DNA from: Halobacteriovoraceae bacterium
Lineage (GTDB): Bacteria > Bdellovibrionota > Bacteriovoracia > Bacteriovoracales > Bacteriovoracaceae
Direction of reading: 5' to 3'
Assembly: GCA_002706205.1 (NCBI GenBank)
Contig: PAKC01000068.1
Location: 21,259 to 85,258 of the forward strand
DNA: 64,000 nt
Shown: piece after piece, positions 16,813 to 37,319 of the stretch
Layout of the letters: every line of letters starts with the position of its first letter
How positions within the stretch are numbered: position 1 is the first letter of the stretch
Translations under genes and position numbers: made by a program
The notes under the pieces: model-generated
What the model saw: the letters and a program-made list of their open reading frames with translations, nothing else
What the model was told of the DNA's origin: nothing
The model's database searches: none

Positions 16813-16926
16813 AATCCAAATAAGAAAAAATCATAGAATTGATGAAAATTTTATAGGTTTCAATTAAAAGTAACGCACAGCAGCCTTTTTTTAGCTATAC
16901 TCAATGAAAATAGATGGAGATCAATT

Positions 16927-18696
16927 ATGACTGTGAAACAGGACAAAACAACCTTAGTGGATATCTTATTTAAAAACCACTCCGTGCATGATCATTTCAT
17001 CAGCTTTCTTTTAGCTAATGGGCAAAAAGTGGATTTCCAACGCGAGCTAATTAAACAAAAATCTACCCATCTTGCGACAAAAATTAAAAGTGTCGCAGCT
17101 GATGAAAATATTCTTTTGGAAGGAAGTAATTCCCTAGACTTTATTATTCATTTTTTTGCTATCATTTTAAGTGGCAATACACCTGTGCCGGTCACCACAA
17201 GTTTATGGATCAATGAAAAACGTTATCAAGAAACTATAAAAAGTATCAAAGAAACAACAAAGGCAAAAATTATTTTAGGAAGTAAACTAGATAAAGGCCT
17301 TCACAGTAAACTAGGTTTAAAAACCTATAATTATAATGACTGGGAAGAAATTCCGGCCATAAATAAGGACTTATCATTTCCTAATCCTACTGATACTGCT
17401 TTTATTCAATTCTCCTCAGGCAGTACTGGTAATCCCAAAGGAGTTGTTCTTTCCCATTACAATGTCATCGCCAATATCAAACAGATTACTGAAGCCATTG
17501 ATAATAAAGAATTAGGAAATACTGTTCTCTCTTGGCTTCCAGTACATCATGATATGGGTCTTATCGGAGGCTTGCTCGTTCCCTTATATAATCAATATAA
17601 AGTTTATATCATGACTCCTTATGACTTCGCGGTTAATCCTGCAAGATGGCTCAAGGCCATCTCCCAATATAAGGCGAACATCATTGTGGGGCCAAACTCT
17701 GCATATAATATGACAGCAAAAAAGGTAAAACAAAAAACCAAAGAAAGTCTTAATTTATCATCGGTAAGAATCGCTTTATGTGGAGCAGAGCCAATAAATG
17801 CCCAAACTCTTGATTTCTTCTATCGAGAGTTTAAGCAGTGTGGCCTTCAAAAAGAAGCTTTTGTTCCCTGTTACGGAATGGCAGAAAACACACTTGCCAT
17901 CAGCTTTCATCAAGGCGGTACCGCTTTTAAAACTGAAAAGATCTCTAAAAGATCTATGCTTTCTTTAGGAGTCGCGACAGCTTGTGAAGGAGATGATTGT
18001 TTAGAATATGTCTCTTGTGGTCAGCCCCTTAACCATGTTGATATTAAAATTGTGGATAACGATGGCCAAACTTTACCAGAAAGACATGTGGGAAATATTC
18101 TTGTCAAAAGTCCTTCTACAACCCAAGGCTATTACCAAAGAGACGATTTAAATAAAGATCTCTTTCATAATGGATATTTAAAAACAGGCGACCTTGGCTA
18201 TATAAGCAACAAAGAAATTTTTGTCACGGGTAGAAAAAAAGATCTTATTATTGTCAATGGCATTAATATCAACGCCGAGGAGATTGAGGCTTACGCAATT
18301 CGCATGAAAGAAATTAAGCCTGGTAGACTCGCTGCTTTTGCTCTTAAAGATAGTAAAACTGATAGTGAAAAAATCCACTTAGTGATAGAAACACGTCGAG
18401 AATACCAATACTTACTTCCTAGAAAAAGAAAACAGCTACAAAAAAAGGTATCAGATACAATATCAAATTTTTTTCCTATAAAAGAAGAGCAAGTTTCTAT
18501 TGTCCCCCCAGGTAGTATCAAAAAAACAACTTCAGGCAAGGTTCAACGCTCTAAAATGAAACAATTATTTCTTAATGGGAAATTAAAATCAGAAAATTTT
18601 ATTCTCAATTTTTTTCTAGGCCAGATGCGTGAGAATCAAATAAAACTCAAAGTCTTCATAACAGGATTAAAGCCACGAAATTTTAAGGGAGCTTAA
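16927..18696 (+). CDS. fatty acyl-AMP ligase (FAAL, FadD32-like ANL enzyme)
   Basis: FSSGSTGNPKGVVLSHYN, YGMAENT, TGDLGY, GRKKDLIIVNGINI and TSGKVQRS blocks. GGAG RBS 8 nt upstream. Confidence 0.8.
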   Translation: MTVKQDKTTLVDILFKNHSVHDHFISFLLANGQKVDFQRELIKQKSTHLATKIKSVAADENILLEGSNSLDFIIHFFAIILSGNTPVPVTTSLWINEKRYQETIKSIKETTKAKIILGSKLDKGLHSKLGLKTYNYNDWEEIPAINKDLSFPNPTDTAFIQFSSGSTGNPKGVVLSHYNVIANIKQITEAIDNKELGNTVLSWLPVHHDMGLIGGLLVPLYNQYKVYIMTPYDFAVNPARWLKAISQYKANIIVGPNSAYNMTAKKVKQKTKESLNLSSVRIALCGAEPINAQTLDFFYREFKQCGLQKEAFVPCYGMAENTLAISFHQGGTAFKTEKISKRSMLSLGVATACEGDDCLEYVSCGQPLNHVDIKIVDNDGQTLPERHVGNILVKSPSTTQGYYQRDDLNKDLFHNGYLKTGDLGYISNKEIFVTGRKKDLIIVNGININAEEIEAYAIRMKEIKPGRLAAFALKDSKTDSEKIHLVIETRREYQYLLPRKRKQLQKKVSDTISNFFPIKEEQVSIVPPGSIKKTTSGKVQRSKMKQLFLNGKLKSENFILNFFLGQMRENQIKLKVFITGLKPRNFKGA

Positions 18697-20274
18697 ATGT
18701 CACAAAACAATCTTGTTACAGATTTTCTTTATCACGTGAATAATTCTCCAGATAAGATTGCCTTTGTTATTCCTGAAAATATAGACAGCCTAAATGATTA
18801 TAAAGAAAAGCTAATCACTTTTTCTCACTTCTATGAGATAGTCGCCAAATATCGCAAAGGCTTAAAAAATGAGGGCTATGTCAAAGGAGATAGAATTATC
18901 ATCCTAGCTCCAATTAATGAAAAAACATATGCATTAATGCTTGCCATATTTTCACTGGGAATGGTGGTTGTCTTTCTCGACCCAGGAATTGGGTTAAAAA
19001 AAATACTTAGAGCAATCTCAGACTCAAAAGCTAAAGCGATTATAAGTGTTGATAAACTTCTTAAGTATCACTTTTTATTTCCGTCGTTATGGAAAAAAAC
19101 AAAATACACAATTGATCAAAATAGGATTGGCCTTAAACAAGAAAACACTCTTTATGCAAAAGAGTATGACAAAATCATTGCTGAAAAAATGCAACCAGAT
19201 GATTACGCTCTTATGACCTATACCTCTGGTTCTACAGGAAAAAGCAAAGGCACAAATAGAAATATTGAAAATATAACAAAACAAATCAATTTTATAAAAA
19301 AAGCCTGGCCATGCCATGAGACAACTATTGATTTTCCCTCCTTCCCTATGTTTGGTCTTATGAATCTTTTGTGTGGGATAACAACAGTTGTTCCAGCAGT
19401 TAATTTTTCAAATATAGGAAGTTTTAACCCGGAAGTTGTCATTAAACAGATGGAAAGATGGAATATTACTCGTATGTGTGGCTCCTATGCTTTTCACAAT
19501 AAACTCGTGAAAAAATTAAAAGAAAAAAATAAAAAAATAAAGAGTTTAAAAAATATTGCATTTGGAGGATGTCCGGTCACCGAGGAATTCTGCCAAGGTC
19601 TTTTCGAGATTTATCCAAATGCAAAAACGGAAATCATTTATGGTTCAACTGAAGTAGCTCCAATTTCAAGTATTGAAATTAATGAGTTTCTTGCTGCAAA
19701 AGGAGATGGTTTTTTGGTCGGTCATATTTATCCCGGTCTTCAAGTCAAAGTCGTAAAACTCCCTCAAAAGATATATGAATTTGATCATCAAGATGGCAAA
19801 CAATATGAAATGGGCACTAACTCAATTGGAGAAGTCATTATTCAAGGGCCACATGTTGTCCAAGAATATATTGATAACCCGCAGGCAACAAAAGAAAACA
19901 AAATAAAATCTCCGACAGGAAAAAAATGGCATAGAAGTGGAGATTGTGGCTATTTTGATAACGAGGGAAGACTTTGGCTTGTAGGAAGGATAAATGATAT
20001 TATTTGGTCTGCCCAAAAAGAACTTCATCCTTATTCAATTGAAGCCCAACTCGATAAGTTACAAGGAATTCAAAGAAGTGCTCTTGTTCAAAAAGGAAAA
20101 GAAATTAAACTTTTTATTGAAGGACAGCTCAATACAAAAAATCAACCGCTACTAAAACAATTGCTTCAAAAAAATAATTTAGAAAAAGTGAAGCTCCAAT
20201 CCATCACGAAGATACCCGTTGATGATAGGCATAACTCAAAAATAGACCGGGTAAAATTGAGAGGAATGATATAA
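18697..20274 (+). CDS. ANL-superfamily adenylating enzyme with OleC-like C-terminal signature
   Basis: TYTSGSTGKSKG, YGSTE, SGDCGYFD and GRINDII blocks. The C-terminus reads PVDDRHNSKIDRVKL instead of the usual SGKxxR. Confidence 0.75.
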   Translation: MSQNNLVTDFLYHVNNSPDKIAFVIPENIDSLNDYKEKLITFSHFYEIVAKYRKGLKNEGYVKGDRIIILAPINEKTYALMLAIFSLGMVVVFLDPGIGLKKILRAISDSKAKAIISVDKLLKYHFLFPSLWKKTKYTIDQNRIGLKQENTLYAKEYDKIIAEKMQPDDYALMTYTSGSTGKSKGTNRNIENITKQINFIKKAWPCHETTIDFPSFPMFGLMNLLCGITTVVPAVNFSNIGSFNPEVVIKQMERWNITRMCGSYAFHNKLVKKLKEKNKKIKSLKNIAFGGCPVTEEFCQGLFEIYPNAKTEIIYGSTEVAPISSIEINEFLAAKGDGFLVGHIYPGLQVKVVKLPQKIYEFDHQDGKQYEMGTNSIGEVIIQGPHVVQEYIDNPQATKENKIKSPTGKKWHRSGDCGYFDNEGRLWLVGRINDIIWSAQKELHPYSIEAQLDKLQGIQRSALVQKGKEIKLFIEGQLNTKNQPLLKQLLQKNNLEKVKLQSITKIPVDDRHNSKIDRVKLRGMI

Positions 20275-21296
20275 TGACCGTTAGTGGAAAGTATCATTAC
20301 TTATATCAAAAAAGCTATGGAGTTAAGATTGCTCAAATTGATGACTTTTTACCCGATGGGATAACCACTAATGAGGATATCATTACCCAAAACCAATTAC
20401 GCCTAAAAGATGAATGGGTCCAAAAAAGTATTGGGATTAGGCAAAGACATTGGTGTAAAAATGGAGAGACGGCCTCAGATTTAGGTGCGAAAGCTTTGAG
20501 AAAGGTTCTTCCCAGTAAGAGTTCACTTGAAGGTTTGATTGTTTCAACTGTATCAGAAGATGTGATGACCCCCTCAACTGCTTGTATCATTCAATCCAAA
20601 GCAACTCCCGGAGAACTTTATCCAGCCTTTGATATAAAAGCGGCCTGTGCGGGCTTTATTTTTGCTCTGGATATGGGAAGAAGAATGATACAGACTGGCG
20701 CTAAAAAAATAGCCTGTGTCGCCACAGAAACACGCAGCTATTATCTAGACAAAAAAGACAGAAGAACGGTTATGCTTTTTGGAGACGGGGCAGCGGCGGT
20801 TATTTTAGAAAAAACACAAAAGGATGAAATTGGAATTTTTTACTCCCATCTTATCAGTGATGGACGTTTTTGGGATGCTATCTTTGTTCCGGCCAGTGGT
20901 GGCCTTATTCAAGCACGCAACGAAGCTCCCAAAAATTCGATTGTTATGAATGATGCAAGTGGAATTTTTGATTCCGCCATACTAAAAATGCAAGAGCTCA
21001 TAAATAATGCTCTCACAGAGTGTAAGCTTACAAAAAATGACATTGATCACTTTATCATTCATCAGGCCAGCAAAAATATCGTTGCAAAAGTAGCAGACGA
21101 GCTAAAACTCGACCCATCCCAATTTACAATTAACTTTGATCAAGTAGGTAATATCACCTCAGCCTCAGTAGGAGTCCTTCTTTCACAATGCCTCAAAGAA
21201 AAAAGAATAAAAAAGGGAGACCTCATCTGTCTTATAGCAACAGGAGGAGGCTATAGCGCAGGAATCATCTTGCTAAGATGGGAGCAAGATTTATGA
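20274..21296 (+). CDS. KASIII/FabH-type thiolase-fold condensing enzyme
   Basis: Cys block AACAGF, His block HQASKN and Asn block GNITSAS in FabH order and spacing. Confidence 0.8.
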   Translation: MTVSGKYHYLYQKSYGVKIAQIDDFLPDGITTNEDIITQNQLRLKDEWVQKSIGIRQRHWCKNGETASDLGAKALRKVLPSKSSLEGLIVSTVSEDVMTPSTACIIQSKATPGELYPAFDIKAACAGFIFALDMGRRMIQTGAKKIACVATETRSYYLDKKDRRTVMLFGDGAAAVILEKTQKDEIGIFYSHLISDGRFWDAIFVPASGGLIQARNEAPKNSIVMNDASGIFDSAILKMQELINNALTECKLTKNDIDHFIIHQASKNIVAKVADELKLDPSQFTINFDQVGNITSASVGVLLSQCLKEKRIKKGDLICLIATGGGYSAGIILLRWEQDL

Positions 21297-21973
21297 AAAA
21301 TAATATATTAATCACAGCAGGACTCACAGGTATAGGAAAAGAAATATCAAAACTTTTGGCCGGTAATGGCTTCAATACCTACCATACAACCTCACGAATA
21401 GATCAGGTAGATGAACAAACTTTTTACTGGAATATGAAAGATTTAAATTCAAGTAAAGACCTGATCACACAACTTAAAAATAAAAATATTCATATCGATG
21501 GTCTTATCCATTGTGCACATATTTTTAGTCCGGCCCAACCCATCTTTGGTATTAATTCTAAAACTTTCAGTGAATCATTACTCACAAACATTCTTCCCTG
21601 CTTTGAACTTTCCAAAGGACTTGCAAAATTAATGGCCAGAAGAAATTATGGAAGAATTATTTTTATTGGTAGCATGGCCGCAATTAAAGGAAGTCCTGGA
21701 AAACTTAGCTATATTGTTGAAAAAAATGCTCTGAACGGACTGGCAGTAGCTTTTAATAGTGAACTTAAAGAAAAAAATGTTCTTACAAAAATTTTACACC
21801 CTGGCCTCACTGATACCGAACAGATCCGAAAGCGACTCAAACAAGAGATTTTAGATATTATAGGTGAAGATAACTTACTATCTCCACTGGATGTGGCCAA
21901 TAAAGTCCATTATTTGTTAAAAAATTCTGAACAACAAACAATATTTCATATGGGAGATGAACAATCATGGTAA
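21293..21973 (+). CDS. classical short-chain dehydrogenase/reductase
   Basis: I prefer ATG 21293 (ATGA overlap with the fabH-like stop) to 21278. Cofactor loop ITAGLTGIGKE and catalytic S...YIVEK. Confidence 0.75.
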   Translation: MKNNILITAGLTGIGKEISKLLAGNGFNTYHTTSRIDQVDEQTFYWNMKDLNSSKDLITQLKNKNIHIDGLIHCAHIFSPAQPIFGINSKTFSESLLTNILPCFELSKGLAKLMARRNYGRIIFIGSMAAIKGSPGKLSYIVEKNALNGLAVAFNSELKEKNVLTKILHPGLTDTEQIRKRLKQEILDIIGEDNLLSPLDVANKVHYLLKNSEQQTIFHMGDEQSW

Positions 21974-22740
21974 ATACTTTTTTCATTCCCCCTATGGGCC
22001 ATTTATCTAGTTTTTATCAAGACTATATTCAACAATATAATTCTCATTATTACTTTCTTGACTATCCTTTATCAAAACAAGAACAATTGACCGGTGCAAG
22101 TTGTTTGATTAAAAATGCAGACTACTTTGCCCAGAAGATCCAACAAATTAATCAAAAAACAAATCAAAATGAGTTTATGATCATAGGCGTTTCACTTGGC
22201 GCGACACTAAGTCTTAAAATAAATGAAAAGTTGAATAATACAGCAAATAAACTCATCTTAATTGCTCCAGGAGGAATTAAAGTTACAAGAGCGAGAAAAG
22301 AGCTGATCAAACAAACTCTTAACGAGCTAAACTGTATGGATTTTATTACCAAAGTCTTGGGTTTAACCTCCTCTGACTTTTTAAAATCAAATTTTTGTCA
22401 ACATTTCTCAGTCACCACTCCCACCTCCCAAGAGTACTATCAAAAACTATACTCATTTTGGAAAAATAATAATCATCTTAAAACTCAAGAAAATTTTAAA
22501 AGTCTTGTGATTGATGCCCTTGATGTTAACTATGAAGAATTACTTGAAAGATATCAAGACAAAATTCATATTATCTGGAGTGAAAAAGATAAGGTTTTTT
22601 CTTCAAGACATCTTAAAAGATTTCAACATCTTTGCCAAAAGTCAATTTTTTCAATTTATCCTAATTATGGGCATTATCTCCCCTTAGAAGCTCCAGAAGA
22701 GTTAAATAAAATTGTGAGGTCTTATGTTTGCCATCTTTGA
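21967..22740 (+). CDS. alpha/beta-fold serine hydrolase
   Basis: Nucleophile elbow GVSLG and C-terminal His block YPNYGHYLPLEAPE. Confidence 0.65.
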   Translation: MVNTFFIPPMGHLSSFYQDYIQQYNSHYYFLDYPLSKQEQLTGASCLIKNADYFAQKIQQINQKTNQNEFMIIGVSLGATLSLKINEKLNNTANKLILIAPGGIKVTRARKELIKQTLNELNCMDFITKVLGLTSSDFLKSNFCQHFSVTTPTSQEYYQKLYSFWKNNNHLKTQENFKSLVIDALDVNYEELLERYQDKIHIIWSEKDKVFSSRHLKRFQHLCQKSIFSIYPNYGHYLPLEAPEELNKIVRSYVCHL

Positions 22741-23539
22741 CCTCCTATTTATCATAACAACCCTTATACTACATACAACAAGCTTATATTTAAGTTATAT
22801 AGTAGTTATTCCTTTATGGTCACAAAGTCTTTTTTTTAATGTCTTCACAATTATCCTTGGTTATTTTTTATTTTTACATTTTTTCACTCTACAAACAGGT
22901 CTTCTCAGACTGCTTTTCCAACCAAAATTAAAAGAAGGAAGTTTTTCTATCGGATTGAATAAAGGTTATGTGGGTTGGGTGCTTAATTCACTCATTCAAG
23001 GTGTATTTATTTCCTCACCCTTTGCTCAGCAATGTTTATTCATTTTTTATCTCAAATGGGCATATTATCGACTTATGGGGATGAAGGTTTCGTTTAAAAG
23101 TTTAATTGGAATGCATACAATAATACGCCAAGCAGAACTTATTGAAATCGGAAAAAAAACTGTCATAGGTCTAGGAGCAGCTCTGAGCTGCCATTATTCT
23201 CCTAGCTCTAAAATTCATATTCAAAGATCTGTAAAAATTGGTGACAATTGTGTTATTGGGGGATTTGCGATTGTAGGAGCTGGCTCCAGCATCGGAAATA
23301 ATACTGTCATCGGGGCAAAGACAAATCTTCTACCTAATGTTTCACTTGGAAACAACGTCAAAATTGGTGGAAATTGTAATATCAACTTTGGAGTGGCCAT
23401 CCCCGACAATGTAAAAATAAAAAGTCATACAGTCATTACCAAAAATGATCAAATCAACTCTGGAGAAATATGGGCAGGTCATCCTGCAAAAAAAGTAGGT
23501 CTCATTGAAGACATAAAAGGAGTAAAAAATGATATTTGA
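22724..23539 (+). CDS. membrane-anchored hexapeptide-repeat (left-handed beta-helix) acyltransferase
   Basis: Hydrophobic N-terminal half with several TM helices. The C-terminal half carries tandem hexapeptide repeats IGDNCVIGGFAIVGAGSSIGNNTVIGAKTNLLPNVSLGNNVKIGGN. Confidence 0.7.
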   Translation: MFAIFDLLFIITTLILHTTSLYLSYIVVIPLWSQSLFFNVFTIILGYFLFLHFFTLQTGLLRLLFQPKLKEGSFSIGLNKGYVGWVLNSLIQGVFISSPFAQQCLFIFYLKWAYYRLMGMKVSFKSLIGMHTIIRQAELIEIGKKTVIGLGAALSCHYSPSSKIHIQRSVKIGDNCVIGGFAIVGAGSSIGNNTVIGAKTNLLPNVSLGNNVKIGGNCNINFGVAIPDNVKIKSHTVITKNDQINSGEIWAGHPAKKVGLIEDIKGVKNDI

Positions 23540-24194
23540 AGATCAAATGAAAGCGGCACTAAAAGAATCAATTACCGTTATTGAAAAGACACAATTTTAT
23601 CAAGATATAATCAATGGGAAAAATGGCAAAAAGTATTATATTAAATATTTAGAGTACGCTTATCATTACGTAACTTTAACATCTTCATTTACTCCTTTAG
23701 CTGCAAGAAGAATGGATCCAAAATATTTAAGGATTAGAAAATGGATTTTAGAACATTCAAGTGAAGAGATGGGACATGAGTTAATGGCCTTAAACGACTT
23801 AAAAAAATTAGGTAAAGCAGAAAATGAAATTACATCTCAGTCTCCTCCTCTAGGTGTCACATGTTGGGTGAGCTATTTTCATTATCAAGTGGCCATTGCA
23901 AACCCCTTTAACGCATTTGGAGTGCTCTACTTTTTAGAAGGAATGGCCACAGACCTAGCACCAAAACTTGTACCTAAAATTATAGATTCACTTGATGACA
24001 AAGAAAAAAAAGCTATTACTTTTTTTCGTGAACATGGTGATCTAGATGAAGATCATCTGGCCGAGCAAGAAGCAATTCTTTTTAAAGCAGACTTAGATAA
24101 AATACAACAAGATTCAATTATTAAAACTGTTCAAGAAGCAGCACAAATAAAAAAGTTTATGCTAGACCAACTTGTTTTGGAATTTAATCAATAA
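23529..24194 (+). CDS. heme-oxygenase-like fold, putative diiron 'iron-containing redox enzyme' family protein
   Basis: All-helical and about 220 aa. Carboxylate/His ligand-like blocks HSSEEMGHE, YFLEGMA and REHGDLDEDH lie on separate helices. Confidence 0.55.
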   Translation: MIFEDQMKAALKESITVIEKTQFYQDIINGKNGKKYYIKYLEYAYHYVTLTSSFTPLAARRMDPKYLRIRKWILEHSSEEMGHELMALNDLKKLGKAENEITSQSPPLGVTCWVSYFHYQVAIANPFNAFGVLYFLEGMATDLAPKLVPKIIDSLDDKEKKAITFFREHGDLDEDHLAEQEAILFKADLDKIQQDSIIKTVQEAAQIKKFMLDQLVLEFNQ

Positions 24195-24204
24195 GGAGAA
24201 TCAG

Positions 24205-24432
24205 ATGGCAACTCAACAAGAAATTATCGGCCTTATTTCAGAAATCACAGGAGTTTCTCAAGAAGAAATAAAAATGACTGATGAATTCAAATCAGACTTA
24301 AAAATGGATTCCATTGCGATTGTGGATCTCATTTCTTCGTTAGAAGAGGACTTCGACGTTATTATTGAAATGGAAAAAGCCATGACCATTAAAAATGTTC
24401 AGCAACTCATAGATGAAATAAACTCTAATTAA
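24205..24432 (+). CDS. acyl carrier protein
   Basis: ATG 24205 with an AAGGAG RBS; the track start at 24172 lies inside the upstream gene. Phosphopantetheine site LKMDSIAIVDL. 75 aa and acidic. Confidence 0.8.
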   Translation: MATQQEIIGLISEITGVSQEEIKMTDEFKSDLKMDSIAIVDLISSLEEDFDVIIEMEKAMTIKNVQQLIDEINSN

Positions 24433-28843: not shown

Positions 28844-28850
28844 TTATTCC

Positions 28851-30227: not shown

Positions 30228-31773
30228 TTAAATAATACTCACTCCATTGCATATTATTTTCTTTTAAAAAATTAAATAATTGTTTAATCTCAGAGTCATC
30301 ATTATGAATATTTAAAAACTTTGCTTGCCCAAAATTTTTATATTTTAAAAGATACTCATTTAGAGAGCCCTCAGGTATTAAACTCATTTTTGGCGCAATT
30401 AATCTCGTATTAGCATCCCTGGCGAGTTTATAGCCACTATTAAACTCCATTAAGTCTTTATCTAGAGAGTCTAAGAGTTTATGTCCAGTTTCTGAACTAA
30501 GATCTATCGTTTTTTGTTCAAAAATCCAATGATAGCCTTTTTTATTGTCTTTTATGTAAAAGCTAACTGCAAATTTCTTTAAGTCCATATGATAACGTGA
30601 TTCTAGCTTACATAAAAATCTTTTTAAATGATCAACTGATAATTGCTCAATTCCAGCCAAGTTAAGTTCTTCTTTTTCTCTTCCTATCACTTTTATCAAT
30701 GGTGGACATAAAGAAGTAAATTCTATAATATCGCCCAAATAATAACAAAAAAGTCCACCTTTTGTTGTTATGAGTATTCTATACTTTTGACCAACTTCCA
30801 CCTGACCAAGTGTTATTTTTTTAGACTTTAAATCTTTCTCAGCTTTCTGAAATTGATAAAAGCAACTCTCGACATCAAGATATAACTCCCCTGCTTTTTT
30901 TTTATACTGAAATGCTATTGGTGATTCAGTTGCAGAATAGATTTCCATAAAAGGAATATCTCCTCCTAAAAAATGACGTAATCTAGATTCATAAGGAGCA
31001 ATAGAAGTTCCAGACCAAGTATACAAACTTAAATTTGGCCAAATGTCTTTAATCGTTTGAACTTCTTTGCCTCTCTGATGAGCCTTTTCAAAAAGCTTTT
31101 CTAAAATAACAGTAGCAAAAGCAGGAACAGAAGAAAAGACACGTATATCGAGATCAATGGCCTCTTCTATCATGGCATCAATTTTCTTAGAATTATTATC
31201 AATAGCAAGAATATGCTTACTGGGCTTAACCACTTTTTGTGAAAACTTAGGTGCTAACAAAGTCATAATCGCAGTAGCATACCCTATGTGAATCCCCATT
31301 TGGTTTTCCTCAGTTTTCAAATGAGAAGGGCTTACTAAAATATTTTGGTCTAACAAGTCATATCTTTTCAATACATGACTAAAATGAAAAAACGTTCTCG
31401 ACGAAAACGATTTAAAATTTTTGATGAGGTTTTTTGTATAAGGAATATATTTGCTTTTTTGAGTCGATCCCGACGTTTTGGCCATATAATCAAGTCTCGT
31501 TGTTTGGATAAATCCCTTAGGATTATGCTCGAGAAGCTCAGTAATTAAAGGCCAATAATCAATATCTGTAGTTGCTGCAATCTTTAAACCAAACTCGTCA
31601 ATTCCATTAATTTGATCTAAATGAAAATGTCTGCCCCAGGGCTTATGTTTAAACTCATTAAGAATATTTAATAATACTTTTCGTTGCATTAAAGTGATTG
31701 TTTGAGGAGTAGACATTATCTTTCGTTCTAGGTAATAACTTACAAATTTTATAAATAAGTGTTGTCCTCTCAT
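30220..31773 (-). CDS. GH3-family (auxin-responsive-promoter type) acyl-acid amido synthetase-like adenylating enzyme
   Basis: GH3-type P-loop-like block KTSGSTQKSKYIPYT, YATAIM and YSATES blocks, and about 500 aa. A possible alternative start is Met20. Confidence 0.65.
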   Translation of the reverse strand: MRGQHLFIKFVSYYLERKIMSTPQTITLMQRKVLLNILNEFKHKPWGRHFHLDQINGIDEFGLKIAATTDIDYWPLITELLEHNPKGFIQTTRLDYMAKTSGSTQKSKYIPYTKNLIKNFKSFSSRTFFHFSHVLKRYDLLDQNILVSPSHLKTEENQMGIHIGYATAIMTLLAPKFSQKVVKPSKHILAIDNNSKKIDAMIEEAIDLDIRVFSSVPAFATVILEKLFEKAHQRGKEVQTIKDIWPNLSLYTWSGTSIAPYESRLRHFLGGDIPFMEIYSATESPIAFQYKKKAGELYLDVESCFYQFQKAEKDLKSKKITLGQVEVGQKYRILITTKGGLFCYYLGDIIEFTSLCPPLIKVIGREKEELNLAGIEQLSVDHLKRFLCKLESRYHMDLKKFAVSFYIKDNKKGYHWIFEQKTIDLSSETGHKLLDSLDKDLMEFNSGYKLARDANTRLIAPKMSLIPEGSLNEYLLKYKNFGQAKFLNIHNDDSEIKQLFNFLKENNMQWSEYYLND

Positions 31774-31780
31774 CTGTTCC

Positions 31781-33037
31781 TCAAAAAAACCTTTTTAACT
31801 CAAAGTGTAAGCTATCATTATCCTCTAAAAGAGCTAAACCTTTTGAGTCTTGTTGATCATAAATAACCCAACGATAGGCCACAGAAGCCCTCCAAAAATT
31901 TGAAAGTCTTTGCTCATATTTCAAACTTCCGATTCCTTCTTGTTTTCTTTCTAAGTCTAAAAAATGGCCGAAATAAATTTCCCTGGCCCATTGGTCATTA
32001 AAGCGTAGTCTTTTGCCAAAAAATAAATCATTTTGAAAAATATTAATCTCCCAAGCTTCTTGCTGAGAAACTCCACTCACACGATGATATTCCACAAAAA
32101 AATCAGAGCTAAGCCCATTATCGTATTGATAGGTATATTCATAACCTATTGACACATGTCCATAATCATTTTTTGTGACAAGCCTTTCACCATTAAAAAT
32201 AGGACTCTCCTCATCAAGAAAGTCCGTATAAAGTAGCTCAAATTTAAAAACTTTATTTTCGCCACTAATGGCCCCAGAAAAGCCAATATCAATCACTTCA
32301 AAATAGTAGGCTGAAAAGTCACCATTGGGTATGAGATTTGTTCCGACTTCACTAAATTTATGAAAACCAAACAAAGGCTGGCGCCTATTAATATGTTTAA
32401 GACCAAAAAGAAAATACTCACCCTGCCCATACAAAAAATCGTAAGATAACCCAAATTGAATTTTTTCTTTTTGATTTTGAGGCTCCTTATCTTTTGCAAC
32501 CCAAAATGACTCTTGAGCGACCTTTGCTAAGCTAAGCCTTGAATTATCACTTGGATAAAAATTATTTTCAAAAAAAGGAAATAAATAAAAAGATAAAGTT
32601 GAATCTGAAAACTCTTTACTAAACGAAAAAGAAAGTTCCCCTTTTTTTTCTAAGTTCTCAACTTCAGCGCTAAAGATCCTAGCATTGATCACATCTGTTG
32701 GATTATATGACTCTAGCTTAGACCAATTAAAGATTTGATAGCCGAGTTTTATATTAACAAAACTTGAATTAAATGTTTTAGCAATATATCCATCATTAAT
32801 AAATAAATAGCTATTTTCCTTATAAGTCCTATTTAACCCAGCATTTAGACTTAGTTTTGCCCACCAAGTTGTTGATTCATAATCTTGTTCGAGATAGATC
32901 TGAAGAATTTCTTCATAATCTTTCTTATCATTATCGATAGGGTAATAAAGAGATTGGAAACTTAAATCTCCCTTATTTGCGGCCATAAGCAATAAAGGAA
33001 ACGTAAAAAAAAATAAAATTATAGATTGTTTTATCAT
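31781..33037 (-). CDS. outer-membrane beta-barrel protein, unknown family
   Basis: Signal peptide MIKQSIILFFFTFPLLLMA. Alternating amphipathic Tyr/Phe-rich strands throughout and a C-terminal aromatic signature ...HFELKRFF. Confidence 0.55.
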   Translation of the reverse strand: MIKQSIILFFFTFPLLLMAANKGDLSFQSLYYPIDNDKKDYEEILQIYLEQDYESTTWWAKLSLNAGLNRTYKENSYLFINDGYIAKTFNSSFVNIKLGYQIFNWSKLESYNPTDVINARIFSAEVENLEKKGELSFSFSKEFSDSTLSFYLFPFFENNFYPSDNSRLSLAKVAQESFWVAKDKEPQNQKEKIQFGLSYDFLYGQGEYFLFGLKHINRRQPLFGFHKFSEVGTNLIPNGDFSAYYFEVIDIGFSGAISGENKVFKFELLYTDFLDEESPIFNGERLVTKNDYGHVSIGYEYTYQYDNGLSSDFFVEYHRVSGVSQQEAWEINIFQNDLFFGKRLRFNDQWAREIYFGHFLDLERKQEGIGSLKYEQRLSNFWRASVAYRWVIYDQQDSKGLALLEDNDSLHFELKRFF

Positions 33038-33038
33038 C

Positions 33039-33803
33039 TCATCTCTTTAGGGCATTTTTATGAAATTTTCTTTCAGAAATATTGACACCAAGTTTACGTT
33101 TAGACCAAATAAAAAGAGAACTTTTTTTATTCTTAATATTCTCCATTTTTAATCTTCCTACCCGATACATCACTTTTCCAGCGACACGATATTCTTTTAT
33201 ATCAGAAGCATAAGATATCTTATAAAGCTCATTTCTTTTATTATAATATTCTGTTTTTAAAACAATATAATTTTTTTGGTCCACATAAAGATGAGTTTTA
33301 CTATAAGAACTTTTTGTTTTAGGAACTCTTTCTAAGACCCAAACCTTTTTACCATCTAATTGATCTTCTTTAACTAATTGATATGTATATTTTTCAATAG
33401 CTTGGCTTCCGAGATCCTCATAACTAAATTCACTTCCCATAAAAGAGCTCCCTTTTGTCTTTGAGCTAATTTTTTTTACTCTTTTTATGGCAGGAAGAAA
33501 AAGCCATTGATCATCTTCTTTACTTCTATGTCCCCATGTTAACATCTTAATTCCATTTACATCTGGAGGAAAAGTAAAAGTTAATAAAGATTTGTCAGTT
33601 TTATCACCTTCAATAGAAAGGCCTTTCATTTTTCGGGATAGCTTTGTTCCATCCTGACTAATTAAAACAAGCTCCATTTCTGATTCAGAACCTTGAAAGC
33701 CACGATGGGCCTTATCCATTGCTTGAGCAATTTCTTCACCTTTATTTGAAGCTCCATAAATATTGAGACTCAACAATATAAAAATGCAATAATAAAACTT
33801 CAT
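33039..33803 (-). CDS. LolA-like 'outer membrane lipoprotein-sorting' family periplasmic protein
   Basis: Signal peptide. Blocks DDQWLFLPAIKRVKKISS and GSSFMGSEFSYEDL are characteristic of the LolA-like family that accompanies MMPL/RND exporters. Confidence 0.7.
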   Translation of the reverse strand: MKFYYCIFILLSLNIYGASNKGEEIAQAMDKAHRGFQGSESEMELVLISQDGTKLSRKMKGLSIEGDKTDKSLLTFTFPPDVNGIKMLTWGHRSKEDDQWLFLPAIKRVKKISSKTKGSSFMGSEFSYEDLGSQAIEKYTYQLVKEDQLDGKKVWVLERVPKTKSSYSKTHLYVDQKNYIVLKTEYYNKRNELYKISYASDIKEYRVAGKVMYRVGRLKMENIKNKKSSLFIWSKRKLGVNISERKFHKNALKR

Positions 33804-33859
33804 AAGATCTCCCTTAATGATATTTTAACCTATCTCCTCTAAATCTAAAGTATAAATTT

Positions 33860-36124
33860 TTATTCTCGTATAAATTTTGCTAACAATAATGGTAGAAGTA
33901 AAAAGTCAGTTATTAGCGCAATAACTAATCCACATGCCATAAGCAAACCTAAGTTTTGATTAGGAACAAAACTGGCCAATAAGAAACAGCTAAAACTTAT
34001 AGAAAGAATCAAGGTTGTAACAATTAAGGCAGGAGCGCTCTTTTGAAAAAGTTTGACGATAGCTTCTTGAGTAGAATCACCATTTCTAATAAGTTTTAAG
34101 TAATTCGTAAAAATATGAATCGTATCATCAACTGCAATTCCCAAAACGACTGAGGCTATCACAACAGCACCTATATCTAGCGGTCTTCCTACAAGCTGCA
34201 AAATAATGCCAACGGAAAGAACTGGTACAAGATTCGGGATAAGACTTATTAAGCCTGCTTTAAAAGACCTCAAAAAGAAAAGAAGAATGAGTGAAATAAA
34301 AAACAAAGCTACGCCTAAAGAAGTGACAAATGAAGTGACAACTTTACCATTAATACTCTGCCATAGGTAGCGTTTCCCAGTAATCGTTAGATTTAGATTA
34401 TATTTTTGTGCAATAGACTGAATTTCTTTGGCCATCATAACTGCACCTTTAGAATCTTGGTTCTTAACTAATGCAGTAACTCGCATATGCCGCTGGTCTA
34501 ATGTGACTCTATCATTTAAACTGCTTCCTTCTGGAACGCTTAAATTATAGGTAAAAAGATATTGAGCAACTTCTTGTTGAGTCTGAGGTATTCTCTTGTA
34601 TTTACGATCCGAATTATGAAAGACTTCATTCATTCTTTTCACAATATCAACCAGAGAGACGACCTGTGTAATAACAGAAAATTTTTCTGCGATTTCCTGG
34701 GAAAAAGATTCAACTTTTTTTAAAAAAATAGGATTTTTGGTTCCAGACTGCTTTCCTGAGTCAACAGACATTTCCAAAGAAAAAACTCCGCCAACATTTT
34801 TTTCTATATAGTTTAAATCTTTAGCGATAGGAAAGTCTTCATTAAAATACTTTAAAGGATCAGAGTTCACCTCTAATTTTGAAATTAAATAAGCTGAAAC
34901 TAAAAGTAAACTTATAAAAACAATATATATTGGTTTTTCAAACTTAAAAATAAAATCAACCCATTTCCTATAATTTAAGTGACTCATGACTTTCGATTGA
35001 ATAGGCTTATTTTTTAAAAAAAGATTTAAACAAGGGGCCAGAAGAAAATAAGTATAAAACCACGCCATAAAAGTCCCGATCGCGGCGACAACACCCATCT
35101 GACCTATATTTTGAATAGATGAAGTCGAAAAACTTAAAAAACCTATACTTGTCGTCAGTGTTGTTAGAATTGTTGGCAAAAAGTTTTTGTCTAATGACCT
35201 TCTTAAAGCTTCAGTATGGGAACAATCATCTGAATGGCGAAAAAGATAAAATGTAGCAATAATATGGATGGCATCAGCAAGTCCAATCGCCAATAAAAAC
35301 TCAGGTGTAATTGCTGTCAGGTTATGTATGGGGATGTTTATAAATCCCATAAAGGCAAACATAGAAATAACACTGACAATAATCGTAGTAAAACTCAAAA
35401 AAATGACTTTAAAACTTTTAAAATTCAAATACAAAAAAAAGCAAATCAATACAAAGAGCAAAGGAAAAAGAATCTTGAAGTCTTTTATTGACGAGTCTTT
35501 AAAAGCACTGCTGACAACAGCATTACCGGCTAGACGAATATCAATCCCCTCTGGTGGTGAAAAACGACTCAACATCTCTTCAACTTGGTTTAAAATATCT
35601 TTATAAAGAAGTTTTTTCCCAACATCAGCTTTAAGTTTTAAAAAAATCAAACTCACTTTTTTATTTTTCCCAACGAAATGAGAAACGATCTCTTTAGAAC
35701 TCATCGCTTGAGATTCAATTTCTGCTATTGTTTTCTCGGGAGTATATAAAGAGTCAATGATAATTTCATCGTCTTTTGCTTCTATCCAACTATAATTTGT
35801 CAATGACTCAACTTTTGCAGTCGCCTCTATATAAATCGATTCCTGGGTAAGAAGCTCAATATAATCCAAAGTTTTTTTGTTAAAAATCCCCTTTGGATTT
35901 GAAACGACTAAGACCAAAGATTCGCTACTTCCATAGTTTTGATCAAATTTATCTAAGGTTTTAATAAGCGGATCAGAGTCTTTAAACCAGACACGATAGC
36001 TAAAATTACTTTCAATTAGACTTAACCCAGGAAGGCTTAGTAAAAAGAAAGCAAAAGCCGCTAACAATGTAGCGAAAGGTTTTTCAATAATACAATTAAT
36101 GAGAGAGGACTTAAGCTTTTTCAT
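33860..36124 (-). CDS. MMPL / RND-superfamily lipid exporter
   Basis: 754 aa. Two repeats, each with one TM helix, a periplasmic loop and a 5-TM bundle, as in MmpL/HpnN-type exporters. Confidence 0.8.
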   Translation of the reverse strand: MKKLKSSLINCIIEKPFATLLAAFAFFLLSLPGLSLIESNFSYRVWFKDSDPLIKTLDKFDQNYGSSESLVLVVSNPKGIFNKKTLDYIELLTQESIYIEATAKVESLTNYSWIEAKDDEIIIDSLYTPEKTIAEIESQAMSSKEIVSHFVGKNKKVSLIFLKLKADVGKKLLYKDILNQVEEMLSRFSPPEGIDIRLAGNAVVSSAFKDSSIKDFKILFPLLFVLICFFLYLNFKSFKVIFLSFTTIIVSVISMFAFMGFINIPIHNLTAITPEFLLAIGLADAIHIIATFYLFRHSDDCSHTEALRRSLDKNFLPTILTTLTTSIGFLSFSTSSIQNIGQMGVVAAIGTFMAWFYTYFLLAPCLNLFLKNKPIQSKVMSHLNYRKWVDFIFKFEKPIYIVFISLLLVSAYLISKLEVNSDPLKYFNEDFPIAKDLNYIEKNVGGVFSLEMSVDSGKQSGTKNPIFLKKVESFSQEIAEKFSVITQVVSLVDIVKRMNEVFHNSDRKYKRIPQTQQEVAQYLFTYNLSVPEGSSLNDRVTLDQRHMRVTALVKNQDSKGAVMMAKEIQSIAQKYNLNLTITGKRYLWQSINGKVVTSFVTSLGVALFFISLILLFFLRSFKAGLISLIPNLVPVLSVGIILQLVGRPLDIGAVVIASVVLGIAVDDTIHIFTNYLKLIRNGDSTQEAIVKLFQKSAPALIVTTLILSISFSCFLLASFVPNQNLGLLMACGLVIALITDFLLLPLLLAKFIRE

Positions 36125-37319
36125 ATTTCTCCCGTTTCAAGTGATGAGAACTAAGTGAATTTATTCGTAAAAAATTGATTATCATATAAAACAAAGCACA
36201 AGCTAAAAGAAAGTTTTTAGTCTCTACCCTATTTCCAACCAACGAGATCAGACATGAAGCCGATATATTTGTTAAAGTAAAGATAAAGTCTAAAACAGCA
36301 TTTGTTCTACTAATCATCGCTTTATCTACGTGTTGTGATAAATAACTAAATTGGCTTGGGGCCCTTATAAAAAACAACATTCCCCACAAGTAAAAAAGTC
36401 CACAACTCACAAAATAGTTTATCCCCCAAGCCCAGATAAACATAAGAAAAGGTTCAAGCAGGCTAGAATAAAATAAAACTTTCCCAATACTAAACTTACG
36501 AGTCACTTTTTTGTATAAAAGTCCTCCCGTCACACCTCCCAGACCAAAAAGAACCATCATATGTCCATATTCAATCTCTGATTTACCAAAAACCTCTACT
36601 AAAAAAGGGAGGATTAAAGGAATCGTAAATCCACTAAAAATGCCAATAAGTGCATGTCTTTCATACAATCCACGCAAATCTAATCTTCTTTTAATATAAT
36701 AAAGTCCATCTTTGAGCTCTTGAATAAAATAAGACTTTACCTGTCTAGTTTTTAAAGCTGTTATTCTAGGAATCAAAAGAAAAAAGATGATAGAAATAAT
36801 ATAGGTCAAGAGATCAAAGTAAAGTACCACATCTAAAGCTTGGTATTTCGCATAGCACCATGTCCCAATTAACGGCCCTAGAATATGGACAATCGCAAAA
36901 CTAGCACTAAAAAGATTATTACCACTTGGAACTAAATTTGAGGGCAAAATATCAAGAATAAAGGCCCTTTTACAAGGAGTTGATACCCCTGCGAAAATTG
37001 TTTTCATTCCATGTAGACACATTAATCCCCAAATATTTTCTAAGAAGAAAAAACTTAAAGTAAAAGGAATCCTAATAATCTCACAAAAAATTAAAACAGA
37101 GCGTCGGTTAAGCCGATCTCCAATGGGCCCAGCATAAATATTTCCAATTAACATACCAACGATAAAAAAGACTTGTGTAAGTCCCATGTAGGTTTTATCG
37201 TGATCGGATATTCGATATATATGCGCCATAAAAGCAAAATTAAATGCATAAGAACCTAAAGCAGAAACAATAGTTGCCAATAAGGTCAGTGTATATTTTT
37301 TTTGCTTAAGTATAATCAT
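36111..37319 (-). CDS. MFS transporter
   Basis: About 12 TM segments with the loop 2-3 motif GPIGDRLNRR. Confidence 0.75.
   Translation of the reverse strand: MIILKQKKYTLTLLATIVSALGSYAFNFAFMAHIYRISDHDKTYMGLTQVFFIVGMLIGNIYAGPIGDRLNRRSVLIFCEIIRIPFTLSFFFLENIWGLMCLHGMKTIFAGVSTPCKRAFILDILPSNLVPSGNNLFSASFAIVHILGPLIGTWCYAKYQALDVVLYFDLLTYIISIIFFLLIPRITALKTRQVKSYFIQELKDGLYYIKRRLDLRGLYERHALIGIFSGFTIPLILPFLVEVFGKSEIEYGHMMVLFGLGGVTGGLLYKKVTRKFSIGKVLFYSSLLEPFLMFIWAWGINYFVSCGLFYLWGMLFFIRAPSQFSYLSQHVDKAMISRTNAVLDFIFTLTNISASCLISLVGNRVETKNFLLACALFYMIINFLRINSLSSHHLKREKYEKA

Follow-up and report, generated by a model that had tools for sequence, protein, structure and literature searches.

A 64,000-nt stretch of DNA from a Halobacteriovoraceae bacterium (contig PAKC01000068.1 of assembly GCA_002706205.1, positions 21,259 to 85,258 of the forward strand; referred to below as the window) contains, at its positions 16927 to 37319, a 20-kb cluster of 18 genes arranged in two convergent operons. 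In the reading that we favor, to which we assign a probability of roughly 0.4, this cluster builds a specialised lipid on two free-standing acyl carrier proteins (ACPs), independently of polyketide synthases (PKSs) and nonribosomal peptide synthetases (NRPSs), and sends it to the cell envelope. Our best guess for the class of the product is an N-acyl amino acid or an acyloxyacyl-type aminolipid with a 3-hydroxy acyl chain. The 18 proteins proved to be free of PKS and NRPS domains in searches against Pfam and NCBIfam, which bears out an earlier first-pass annotation of this DNA, and the description of the region in that annotation as a lipid assembly-and-export locus is supported by the domain content. 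The catalytic motifs are intact in every recognisable enzyme.

Eighteen related loci (L001 to L018) were identified, 13 of them with a sequence profile of the cluster-encoded heme-oxygenase-like diiron oxidase/oxygenase (HDO) in one-genome-per-species contigs (a pattern-limited scan of 185,579 species genomes) and 5 through exact-protein look-ups in assemblies. With the window counted as the 19th locus, the gene families were compared by tblastn and all-against-all clustering. The gene set proved to be co-conserved in these 18 further loci, an outcome on which the first-pass annotation had made its proposal depend, and to be conserved across three phyla. The hosts of L001 to L003, L005 to L009, and L014 belong to Bacteriovoracaceae/Bdellovibrionota, L004 comes from a metagenome-assembled genome (MAG) of Pseudomonadota, L010 from Ketobacter, and L011 to L013 from Sandaracinaceae and Polyangiales; L015 to L018 are high-GC metagenome contigs. 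Because the loci span a GC content from 0.35 to 0.75 (host or locus), the gene set has long been resident in very different genomes. It is an accessory biosynthetic cluster with a rare and patchy distribution: only 88 homologues of the HDO, mostly metagenomic, were found among 5.8 billion protein clusters. The HDO of the window shares 70% identity with its counterpart from Bacteriovorax sp. DB6_IX, and the hexapeptide-repeat protein encoded beside it is 100% identical to a protein of a Halobacteriovoraceae MAG, which places the source of the window among the marine, Bdellovibrio-like predators.

Organization and gene content of the cluster

The open reading frame (ORF) list reproduces all earlier coordinates of the cluster, including the two convergent operons and their junctions as first described. 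Within each operon, the genes are co-oriented and mostly overlap. Successive junctions in the plus operon measure 0, -1, -4, -7, -17, -11, and +10 nt, with two of the genes counted from the ATG codons at 21293 and 24205 (see below), and those in the minus operon range from -14 to +56 nt, the only sizeable gap lying between the genes for a LolA-like protein and an MMPL-domain transporter. The operons meet in an overlap of 8 nt, with the last gene of the plus operon ending at 24432 and that of the minus operon at 24425; the coordinates confirm this overlap, and a consensus scan revealed no convincing terminator at the convergence point, in agreement with the previous description. The plus operon is preceded by a divergent intergenic region of 114 nt (16813 to 16926), where the same type of scan detected no promoter-like site matching at least 9 of 12 positions; a GGAG Shine-Dalgarno sequence is located 8 nt before the first ATG. 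For the minus operon, a promoter-like site, TATACA-16-TATAAT (37328 to 37355, minus strand), is found 8 nt upstream of the first start codon as a consensus match alone (10/12). At the Rfam gathering thresholds, no riboswitch or other RNA was detected in the window; tRNA genes are absent as well. The cluster has a GC content of 0.337, equal to that of its flanks; a plasmid origin was considered and rejected, as a megablast search of PLSDB with the plus operon came back empty and the GC content is the same as in the flanks. Of the domain assignments made previously, 17 out of 18 were reproduced, and only the outer membrane (OM) barrel at 31781 to 33037 stayed unconfirmed.

The plus operon starts with a fatty acyl-AMP ligase (FAAL) of 589 aa (16927 to 18696, plus strand; PF00501, 2.6e-58). 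Its best NCBIfam match is the general FAAL subfamily NF006624 (388 bits), whereas FadD32, its counterpart in the mycolate comparison, yields 220.8 bits against a cut-off of 975. We recognise in its translation what we take to be the core motifs A3, A5, A7/A8, and A10 of the ANL superfamily, and the enzyme is predicted to load a fatty acid onto ACP1, described below. It is followed by a second ANL adenylating enzyme, ANL2 (525 aa; 18697 to 20274, plus strand), with the highest score for the PRK09274-type family NF006754 (423.5 bits; cut-off 478). Two OleC models give 209.7 and 188.6 bits with ANL2, against cut-offs of 900 and 850, and no PDB match was found at E<=1e-20, a threshold that is too strict for this protein. 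Next comes a KASIII of 340 aa (20274 to 21296, plus strand; ACP_syn_III and ACP_syn_III_C domains), which is of the FabH type, with 264.9 bits for NF006829 (cut-off 249). It has the catalytic triad C125 (in AACAGF), H262 (HQAS), and N292 (GNITSAS), and its best PDB E-values are 2.8e-47 for FabH and 1.8e-20 for the Xanthomonas OleA (3row and 3s21).

The adjacent gene (21278 to 21973, plus strand; likely start at ATG 21293) codes for a classical short-chain dehydrogenase/reductase (SDR) of 231 aa that resembles the FabG ketoreductase (adh_short, 5e-26). Its matches to FabG-type NCBIfam models are all under the cut-offs; a TGxxxGIG-type motif, S132, and Y145xxxK149 are present. An alpha/beta hydrolase of 257 aa (21967 to 22740, plus strand; Abhydrolase_1) carries a Ser nucleophile in the GVSLG elbow, along with D208 and H236. 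Orthologues of this protein match the models for PcaD, BioH, and MenH, their best match to OlsI has an E-value of 2e-8, and the orthologue from L018 matches PF00975 (Thioesterase, the type II thioesterase family). Judging by these matches, the hydrolase could be a thioesterase, an esterase, or an acyltransferase. The last gene of the operon encodes ACP1 (75 aa; 24205 to 24432, plus strand; PP-binding, 1.2e-12), a carrier protein with its serine in a DSI motif. The ORF list starts this gene with a TTG at 24172; the ATG at 24205 is preceded, 7 nt upstream, by AAGGAG.

Between the hydrolase and ACP1 genes lie two of the most informative parts of the cluster. One (22724 to 23539, plus strand) encodes a membrane-anchored hexapeptide-repeat acyltransferase of the left-handed beta-helix (LbH) type (271 aa; Hexapep, 2.9e-17). 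Among NCBIfam models, it matches LpxD (63.8 bits) and, over a stretch of 87 residues, the Pls/PosA NRPS terminal domain TIGR02353 (8e-15). In its AF2 model (pLDDT 78), helices 2-31 and 36-65, which we read as membrane spanning, precede the left-handed beta-helix. H157 is invariant. Besides an identical MAG protein, 33 close relatives were found, and the next relatives are LpxD proteins. Sequence-profile matches to PDB are generic (gamma-carbonic-anhydrase-like proteins, LpxD, QdtC, and LpxA), and a Foldseek search of PDB with the model produced no match at E<1. LpxD and the Pls modules alike acylate amines, with carrier-protein thioesters as the acyl donors.

The other gene (23529 to 24194, plus strand) codes for the HDO, a protein of 221 aa that matches PF14518 with 51.7 bits (1.2e-13; gathering cut-off 28.9). 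Its predicted metal ligands, E80, H83, E137, H169, D173, and H176, are invariant in 18 homologues, and this set of three His and three carboxylate ligands, together with the predicted PF14518 fold, assigns the protein to the HDO family. The closest PDB entry is 3dde (6e-30), an uncharacterised structural-genomics protein, followed at about 1e-5 by MboA, UndA, and CADD. The "iron-containing redox enzyme" of Acinetobacter and Pseudomonas papers was examined as a possible counterpart and found to be unrelated. One of the metagenomic loci encodes the HDO as a fusion with a SAM-binding domain of the TrmO/TsaA type (L016:10001-11086; 110.6 bits; cut-off 93.25), and a separate TrmO_N gene is located at the edge of L018. 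In L015, a YceI lipid-binding protein is inserted between the LbH acyltransferase and the HDO.

The minus operon contributes a GH3-family acyl-acid amido synthetase of 517 aa (30220 to 31773, minus strand; Pfam domains GH3, GH3_M, and GH3_C). Its sole NCBIfam match is OlsH, with 149.3 bits (cut-off 620; 1.3e-43) over a full-length alignment, compared to 4.6e-10 for JAR1, and representatives of the distinct clade to which it belongs are found at E<1e-50. All three nucleotide-binding motifs are present (TSGSTQKSK, YSATE, and YYLGD). OlsH, the only bacterial GH3 protein characterised so far, combines a free fatty acid, ATP, and ornithine to produce N-acyl ornithine (PMC12493201). Several relatives show telling neighbors or fusions of the GH3 gene. 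Thus, L015:980-3766 encodes a 928-aa fusion of a threonine-synthase/cysteate-synthase-like PLP domain with the cluster GH3, a hint that the ligase is supplied with a non-standard amino acid, and a PEMT/ICMT-type membrane methyltransferase is encoded directly after GH3 in L004 (1115-1753), L011 (18469-19929), and L018 (19506-20174), which are far apart in taxonomy. P0233, a GH3 relative of 702 aa that is 31% identical to the protein of the window, has an N-terminal VTT/DedA membrane domain fused to it. Taken with OlsH, these fusions and neighbors of GH3 point to an amide-linked, aminolipid-like product.

Downstream of GH3, the minus operon encodes enzymes that could supply further building blocks. 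The carboxyltransferase (CT; 458 aa; 28851 to 30227, minus strand; Carboxyl_trans, 1.2e-82) is of the alpha-carboxylating PccB/AccD5 type and lacks about 60 N-terminal residues of PccB; its PDB matches rank from the beta subunit of propionyl-CoA carboxylase (PCC; 2.6e-72) through AccD5 (1e-59) and AccD4 (4e-50) to the beta subunit of methylcrotonyl-CoA carboxylase (MCC; 8e-38). ACP2 (81 aa; 28598 to 28843, minus strand) is a divergent carrier protein with a DSL serine, a weak NCBIfam ACP match of 28 bits, and no match in Pfam; it scores 26.6 bits against AmcB, the ACP of the cispentacin pathway. A D-isomer-specific 2-hydroxyacid dehydrogenase of 298 aa (27705 to 28601, minus strand; 2-Hacid_dh_C, 1.7e-30) has its GxGxxG motif, R226, E255, and H273 in place, with all NCBIfam matches under cut-off. 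The next protein, a flavoprotein of 526 aa (26134 to 27714, minus strand), resembles acyl-CoA dehydrogenases (ACADs; Acyl-CoA_dh_M and Acyl-CoA_dh_1) and has short-chain ACADs as its best PDB matches (2.5e-23). Its LFDGS motif is invariant in 12 orthologues (the window and 11 others), and the Asp of this motif presumably occupies the position of the catalytic Glu of MCAD. Since an invariant Asp replaces the usual Glu base, the ACAD-like protein is not an ordinary beta-oxidation enzyme. A C-terminal extension, about 150 aa long in the window and 100 to 300 aa in the family, has no Pfam match. The operon ends with a fusion of biotin carboxylase and biotin carboxyl carrier protein (BC-BCCP; 570 aa; 24425 to 26137, minus strand; Biotin_carb_N, CPSase_L_D2, Biotin_carb_C, and Biotin_lipoyl domains), which has the biotinyl-lysine motif EAMKT and scores 290 bits with the accC model (cut-off 626.5).

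The genes at the start of the minus operon appear to be devoted to export. The first of these encodes a major facilitator superfamily (MFS) transporter of the MFS_3/EntS-like kind (402 aa; 36111 to 37319, minus strand; MFS_1, 3.5e-28; MFS_3, 1.5e-18) with weak matches to EntS and LplT. The second product (754 aa; 33860 to 36124, minus strand; MMPL, 1.1e-29) is an RND/MMPL-domain transporter that we place in the HAE3 family: the MmpL-type exporter of the mycolate comparison gives way to TIGR00921 (HAE3; 221 bits) and HpnN (138 bits), both of which exceed the score of actII/MMPL (106 bits; cut-off 875), with all three under the respective cut-offs. It is followed by a LolA_like, DUF1329-related periplasmic lipid carrier (254 aa; 33039 to 33803, minus strand; PF17131, 4.2e-56; DUF1329, 1.7e-12) and a secreted beta-rich protein of 418 aa (31781 to 33037, minus strand), the putative OM barrel, with a signal-peptide-like hydrophobic N terminus and a C-terminal Phe. 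This last protein had no match in Pfam (E<=5), in a phmmer search of PDB (E<=10), or in a BLASTP comparison with the DUF1302 protein of L013, which occupies the slot of its gene in that locus; a large-database search returned the identical MAG protein alone. A single-sequence AF2 model consists mostly of strands and, with a pLDDT of 32, is unreliable. Homologues of the beta-rich protein adjoin the LolA-like gene in L005, L006, and L014. In the high-GC loci L015 (16865-19290) and L017 (5487-8634), the genes for the MMPL, LolA-like, and beta-rich proteins are missing, and their place is taken by a MacB-type ABC transporter with a membrane-fusion protein, a swap of pumps that fits an exported product.

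Conservation of individual gene families

Many of the related loci are truncated. The family counts are given here out of 19 loci. The HDO is present in 18 or 19 loci, as expected for loci that were chosen through this protein, ACP1 and the ACAD-like protein are each found in 17, KASIII and the LbH acyltransferase in 14, and the hydrolase, ACP2, and CT in 13. FAAL is encoded in 12 loci, SDR in 11, the 2-hydroxyacid dehydrogenase in 10, ANL2 in 9, GH3 in 7 to 9, and both BC and MMPL in 7. The conserved block consists of KASIII-SDR-hydrolase-(LbH acyltransferase)-HDO-ACP1, to which the ACAD-like protein, CT, GH3, and FAAL can be added. Three complete clusters, L005, L006, and L014, do without BC-BCCP, ACP2, and the 2-hydroxyacid dehydrogenase and keep the ACAD-like protein and CT. 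Apart from L004, only loci of the Bacteriovoracaceae type have ANL2; the myxobacterial and high-GC versions lack it.

An additional ANL enzyme, encoded upstream of KASIII, occurs in 10 of the 19 loci. This short protein is found at L001:5449-6726, directly upstream of KASIII, and also in L003, L004, L008, L009, L011 to L013, L016, and L018; it is absent from the window, L005, L006, and L014. The L001 version shows weak matches to MenE and AmcH. L015 and L017 share a recurring sub-operon in which genes for an ANL enzyme, the 2-hydroxyacid dehydrogenase, and the ACAD-like protein stand together, close to an ACP gene.

The named hosts represent mainly two unrelated predatory lineages, the marine Bacteriovoracaceae and Sandaracinaceae/Polyangiales, in addition to Ketobacter and the Pseudomonadota MAG. 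This recurrence is suggestive and does not amount to evidence of a role in predation; in predatory hosts, the lipid could serve in attack on the prey or in self-protection.

Proposed pathway and alternative explanations

In the pathway that we propose, FAAL would adenylate a fatty acid, which would then be loaded on ACP1, and the FabH-type KASIII would extend the ACP1-bound chain through a single decarboxylative Claisen condensation. The malonyl-type unit for this step would come from the PccB-like CT, with the biotin carboxylated by BC-BCCP or, in the relatives without the fusion, by the housekeeping BC and BCCP. The FabG-like SDR would reduce the 3-keto intermediate to a 3-hydroxyacyl thioester, and the Ser-hydrolase would release or transfer the chain. 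GH3 may join a carboxylate to the amine of an amino acid in an ATP-dependent reaction, forming an amide as OlsH does, and the membrane-anchored LbH acyltransferase may move an ACP-bound acyl group to an amine or a hydroxyl at the membrane. ACP2, the 2-hydroxyacid dehydrogenase, and the Asp-type ACAD-like protein would prepare a second, smaller acyl or head-group unit, with participation of the extra ANL enzyme in those relatives that have it, and the diiron HDO would perform an oxidative tailoring step. Finally, export would fall to the MFS transporter and the HpnN-like HAE3 pump, together with the LolA-like carrier and the secreted beta-rich protein encoded next to it; the product would pass through the periplasm and either reach the outer membrane or leave the cell.

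Several considerations weigh against this scheme. Every step past the identification of the genes is inferred. GH3 is not an OlsH equivalog, given its score, the hydrolase shows no greater similarity to OlsI than to PcaD, BioH, or MenH, and the window has no PEMT/ICMT gene; an OlsI-like identity of the hydrolase was considered and rejected as unsupported past the superfamily level (26.9 bits against a cut-off of 385). A simple aminolipid route does not explain the roles of the HDO, the ACAD-like protein, CT, and ANL2, and a carboxylase devoted solely to malonyl supply would be unusual. Unless ANL2 or GH3 takes this part, no obvious loader of ACP2 is left in the window. On the export side, the OM barrel is putative, and the function of the Pseudomonas DUF1302/DUF1329/RND gene sets is disputed.

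A bolder version of the aminolipid proposal would make the product a member of an undescribed class of envelope or secreted lipids, assembled from two ACP-bound units, with GH3 forming an amide to an amino acid and the HDO acting on a lipid or a carrier-bound substrate. We regard this version as tentative, the odds being clearly on the other side. To our knowledge, HDO tailoring of a lipid or of a carrier-bound substrate is a type of reaction not yet known in the superfamily.

The first-pass annotation had favored a different outcome, a branched mycolate-like envelope lipid or a beta-lactone, which now appears unlikely. According to this route, CT and BC-BCCP would turn a long acyl chain into a 2-carboxyacyl thioester, KASIII would condense it with the FAAL-activated chain to a 2-alkyl-3-ketoacid, and SDR would reduce the latter; an OleC-like ANL2 may then close a beta-lactone, which could either undergo decarboxylation to an olefin or persist as a warhead of the lipstatin type. 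FAAL, KASIII, SDR, the hydrolase, and the RND/MMPL pump are all there, the acyl-CoA-carboxylase-type CT and the BC-BCCP fusion follow the actinobacterial arrangement, and the best named models for ANL2 after PRK09274 are two olefin beta-lactone synthetases, both aligned over the full length (6.5e-62 and 1.5e-55). Lipstatin biosynthesis, too, combines acyl-CoA carboxylation, a KASIII-type condensation, an SDR, an ANL enzyme, and an amino-acid side chain. However, the parallels to the mycolate and OleABCD systems turn out to be a likeness of parts lists, and most of the proteins fail the family tests that could be applied to them. KASIII, which passes a FabH subfamily cut-off, is far nearer to FabH than to OleA, a non-decarboxylative, head-to-head Claisen thiolase. 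ANL2 stays at 210 and 189 bits against the OleC cut-offs of 900 and 850, under its PRK09274 score, and is absent from the myxobacterial and high-GC versions. OleB is haloalkane-dehalogenase-like, with an Asp nucleophile, whereas the hydrolase of the cluster has a Ser in this place, and only 2 of 11 orthologues touch the haloalkane dehalogenase model (best E-value, 6.8e-5). OleD is an extended SDR of the 3-beta-HSD type of about 330 aa; the protein of the cluster is a classical SDR of 231 aa that matches adh_short, adh_short_C2, and KR and has no match to 3-beta-HSD or Epimerase. Among its PDB matches, CT ranks closest to the short-chain PCC beta subunit and not to AccD4.

The distribution of the genes weighs on the branched-lipid route as well. 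Because the OleC-like ligase and BC-BCCP are missing from many versions of the cluster, BC-BCCP even from the otherwise complete L005, L006, and L014, a 2-alkyl-3-hydroxy acid or beta-lactone intermediate, through which both of the pathways invoked earlier had been supposed to pass, is not a conserved feature of the family. Mycolate- or Ole-like chemistry may still operate in this particular window, which has both ANL2 and BC-BCCP. Six parts of the cluster are not accounted for by the branched-lipid route, namely, GH3, the LbH acyltransferase, the HDO, the ACAD-like protein, the 2-hydroxyacid dehydrogenase, and ACP2; the first four of these, which are the most conserved and most informative parts of the cluster, had been given little weight. 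For Halobacteriovorax marinus, an active OleA with 38% identity to the enzyme from Xanthomonas has been reported (PMC7064751), which must be encoded by a different gene. An identity of KASIII with that H. marinus OleA was considered and rejected, as KASIII matches OleA weakly and partially.

Still less probable, in our estimate, is a route based on a substituted malonyl extender, in which a hydroxy-, amino-, or alkyl-malonyl unit on ACP2 would be condensed by KASIII with the acyl-ACP1 chain to yield a 2-substituted 3-hydroxy fatty acid. ACP2 would receive a small hydroxy or keto acid from an ANL enzyme or GH3; oxidation of this acid would be the task of the dehydrogenase and the ACAD-like protein, CT may carboxylate it, and the HDO and the acyltransferases would modify the 2-substituted 3-hydroxy acid further. 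The logic is that of the FkbH-K and ZmaG-J cassettes, which produce hydroxymalonyl- and aminomalonyl-ACP, and ACP2, the dehydrogenase, and the ACAD-like protein are encoded next to each other in the window. Two ACPs and one condensing enzyme fit a scheme with one chain per carrier, the invariant Asp of the ACAD-like protein in place of the usual Glu base sets it apart from ordinary beta-oxidation enzymes, and the ANL-dehydrogenase-ACAD-like unit recurs, with an ANL enzyme that is PaaK-like in L015 and L017 and MenE/AmcH-like in the L001-type loci. Furthermore, ACP2 and the extra ANL enzyme of L001 weakly match AmcB and AmcH of the cispentacin pathway, where a keto acid is loaded on an ACP. On the other hand, there is no FkbH-type loader or domain, FkbI is absent among the PDB matches listed for the ACAD-like protein at E<1e-8, and the dehydrogenase belongs to the 2-hydroxyacid family, whereas the known cassettes use the 3-hydroxyacyl family. 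The complete clusters L005, L006, and L014 lack the dehydrogenase and ACP2, yet keep the ACAD-like protein and CT, and the window itself lacks the extra ANL enzyme. The aminolipid, branched-lipid, and extender readings overlap and could be parts of one pathway.

It is very improbable that the locus is a catabolic one, which would import hydrophobic compounds (prey lipids or branched acids, for example) and break them down in the style of the leucine or geraniol pathways. An ACAD that occurs beside a biotin carboxylase and a carboxyltransferase does recall the isovaleryl-CoA dehydrogenase (IVD)/MCC pair, DUF1302/DUF1329/RND genes have fitness effects on fatty esters in Pseudomonas putida, and the host lineage is predatory; nevertheless, two ACPs, FAAL, a FabH-type enzyme, the LbH acyltransferase, GH3, and the HDO are hallmarks of biosynthesis, a set of hydratase, 3-hydroxyacyl-CoA dehydrogenase, and thiolase is missing, and CT is of the alpha-carboxylating PCC type and not of the MCC/GCC type. 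Primary fatty acid synthesis, with a housekeeping acetyl-CoA carboxylase, FabH, and ACP, which would have refuted the first-pass proposal, is all but excluded: KASIII does pass the one FabH subfamily cut-off, but neither the cluster nor the whole window encodes FabD, FabF/B, FabZ/A, or FabI, the equivalog cut-offs are missed for accC (290/626.5), acpP (50.4/70.45), and fabH (TIGR00747; 245.9/292.1), complete relatives do without BC-BCCP and ACP2, and the pattern-limited scan of species genomes returned just its 13 loci, none of them titled Halobacteriovorax marinus. The probability left over belongs to chemistry beyond these readings.

Full-text searches for distinctive gene combinations retrieved, in the literature covered, no description of the cluster; the first-pass annotation had likewise not recognised the combination as a described pathway. 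The component families are all known, and ACP-dependent lipid clusters with LolA-like and RND export, among them those for aryl polyenes and flexirubins, do exist. If the aminolipid proposal holds, the cluster would represent a new route to a bacterial envelope lipid, in which a GH3 ligase of the plant-hormone type is combined with a carboxylase of its own, a membrane-anchored LbH acyltransferase, and a diiron HDO. Several orphan subfamilies would thereby gain a first function, namely, the 3dde-related HDO clade, the Asp-base ACAD-like clade, the free-standing Pls-like LbH protein, and the cluster-specific GH3 clade. A single bacterial GH3 protein has been characterised to date, and HDOs are a fast-growing source of oxidative chemistry. 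Because cultured Bacteriovorax isolates (DB6_IX and Seq25_V) carry the cluster, lipidomics and heterologous expression are feasible.

Genomic surroundings and parallels with known systems

Ordinary chromosomal genes flank the cluster, among them genes for peptidases, FtsH, CorA, and regulators, one of the LysR type and one Crp-like. Positions 15091 to 16812 (minus strand), which diverge from the plus operon, encode a 573-aa trypsin-like serine protease fused to leucine-rich repeats, which may be a secreted predation factor and is not conserved beside the cluster in other loci. At the other end, a second MFS transporter (469 aa; 37362 to 38771, plus strand) diverges from the minus operon, with 42 nt separating it from the start of the first MFS gene; we left it out of the cluster because it is not conserved in the related loci. 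A DUF4147/MOFRL protein (12278 to 13498, minus strand), located 3.4 kb upstream of the cluster and without a link to it, has an architecture that we take to be that of glycerate 2-kinase or hydroxypyruvate reductase enzymes; it could become relevant if ACP2 carried a glycerate-derived unit, and nothing ties the two together. The window also contains three AstE/AspA (succinylglutamate desuccinylase/aspartoacylase) paralogues within 64 kb (1578 to 2675, plus strand; 5128 to 6153 and 59406 to 60410, minus strand), which sit among M28 and M24 peptidases and a Cys/Met PLP enzyme, as well as two large ORFs on the minus strand with no Pfam match at E<=1e-5, at 45559 to 48372 (937 aa) and at 6162 to 7592 (476 aa).

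Individual parts of the cluster have counterparts in several described systems. The mycolate system (FadD32, Pks13, AccD4/AccA3, CmrA, and MmpL3) shares with it a FAAL, a BC-BCCP with a separate CT (the arrangement of AccD4/AccA3, even if CT ranks PCC beta over AccD5 and AccD5 over AccD4), a Claisen step, a ketoreductase, and an MMPL-domain exporter. In contrast to that system, the cluster encodes no Pks13 or other PKS, its FAAL is no FadD32 orthologue, its pump is HAE3/HpnN-like, and its host is a diderm that is equipped with a LolA-like periplasmic carrier. The OleABCD and beta-lactone pathways (NltABCD for nocardiolactone and LstA-F for lipstatin) resemble the cluster in having a condensing enzyme of the thiolase superfamily, an SDR, an ANL enzyme, which in the cluster is the distantly OleC-like ANL2, and an alpha/beta-hydrolase, and lipstatin adds the acyl-CoA carboxylation and the amino-acid appendage; half of the family, however, lacks the OleC-like enzyme.

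On the export side, the aryl polyene and flexirubin clusters are ACP-dependent and PKS/NRPS-independent and use LolA-like proteins and MMPL/RND transporters for outer-membrane localisation. The parallel covers only this half of the cluster, which contains no KS/CLF pair or dehydratase, shows no iterative elongation, and has a single KASIII, with the HDO, GH3, and the carboxylase present instead. HpnN and the DUF1302/DUF1329/HAE3 sets (from Pseudomonas, and AmeABCD from Castellaniella), which are thought to move hydrophobic molecules to the outer membrane, likewise combine an HAE3-type RND transporter, a LolA_like/DUF1329 protein, and an adjacent secreted protein; here, the scores are under the family cut-offs, and the adjacent protein has no detectable similarity to DUF1302. 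The LbH acyltransferase resembles the LbH modules of Pls/PosA (TIGR02353), in which transmembrane helices are followed by a hexapeptide-repeat domain. Those modules act on a carrier-protein thioester and form an amide; in the cluster, the counterpart is a free-standing protein of 271 aa with no fused A or T domain.

For the expected product, the most instructive comparison is with the OlsH-OlsG-OlsI ornithine-lipid pathway of the planctomycete Singulisphaera acidiphila (PMC12493201), whose OlsH operon includes the genes for OlsG, a lipid methyltransferase, and for OlsI, an O-acyltransferase of the alpha/beta-hydrolase type (PMC12493201; PMC12971839). Both systems have a bacterial GH3 adenylating amide ligase and an alpha/beta-hydrolase in one locus, and the membrane methyltransferase beside GH3 in L004, L011, and L018 extends the likeness, though the window lacks one; in both, the product to be expected is a membrane lipid with a fatty acid amide-linked to an amino acid. 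OlsHGI, however, is a three-gene operon that acts on pre-made fatty acids, whereas the locus described here adds FAAL, two ACPs, KASIII, SDR, the carboxylase, the ACAD-like protein, the HDO, the LbH acyltransferase, and an export system of its own.

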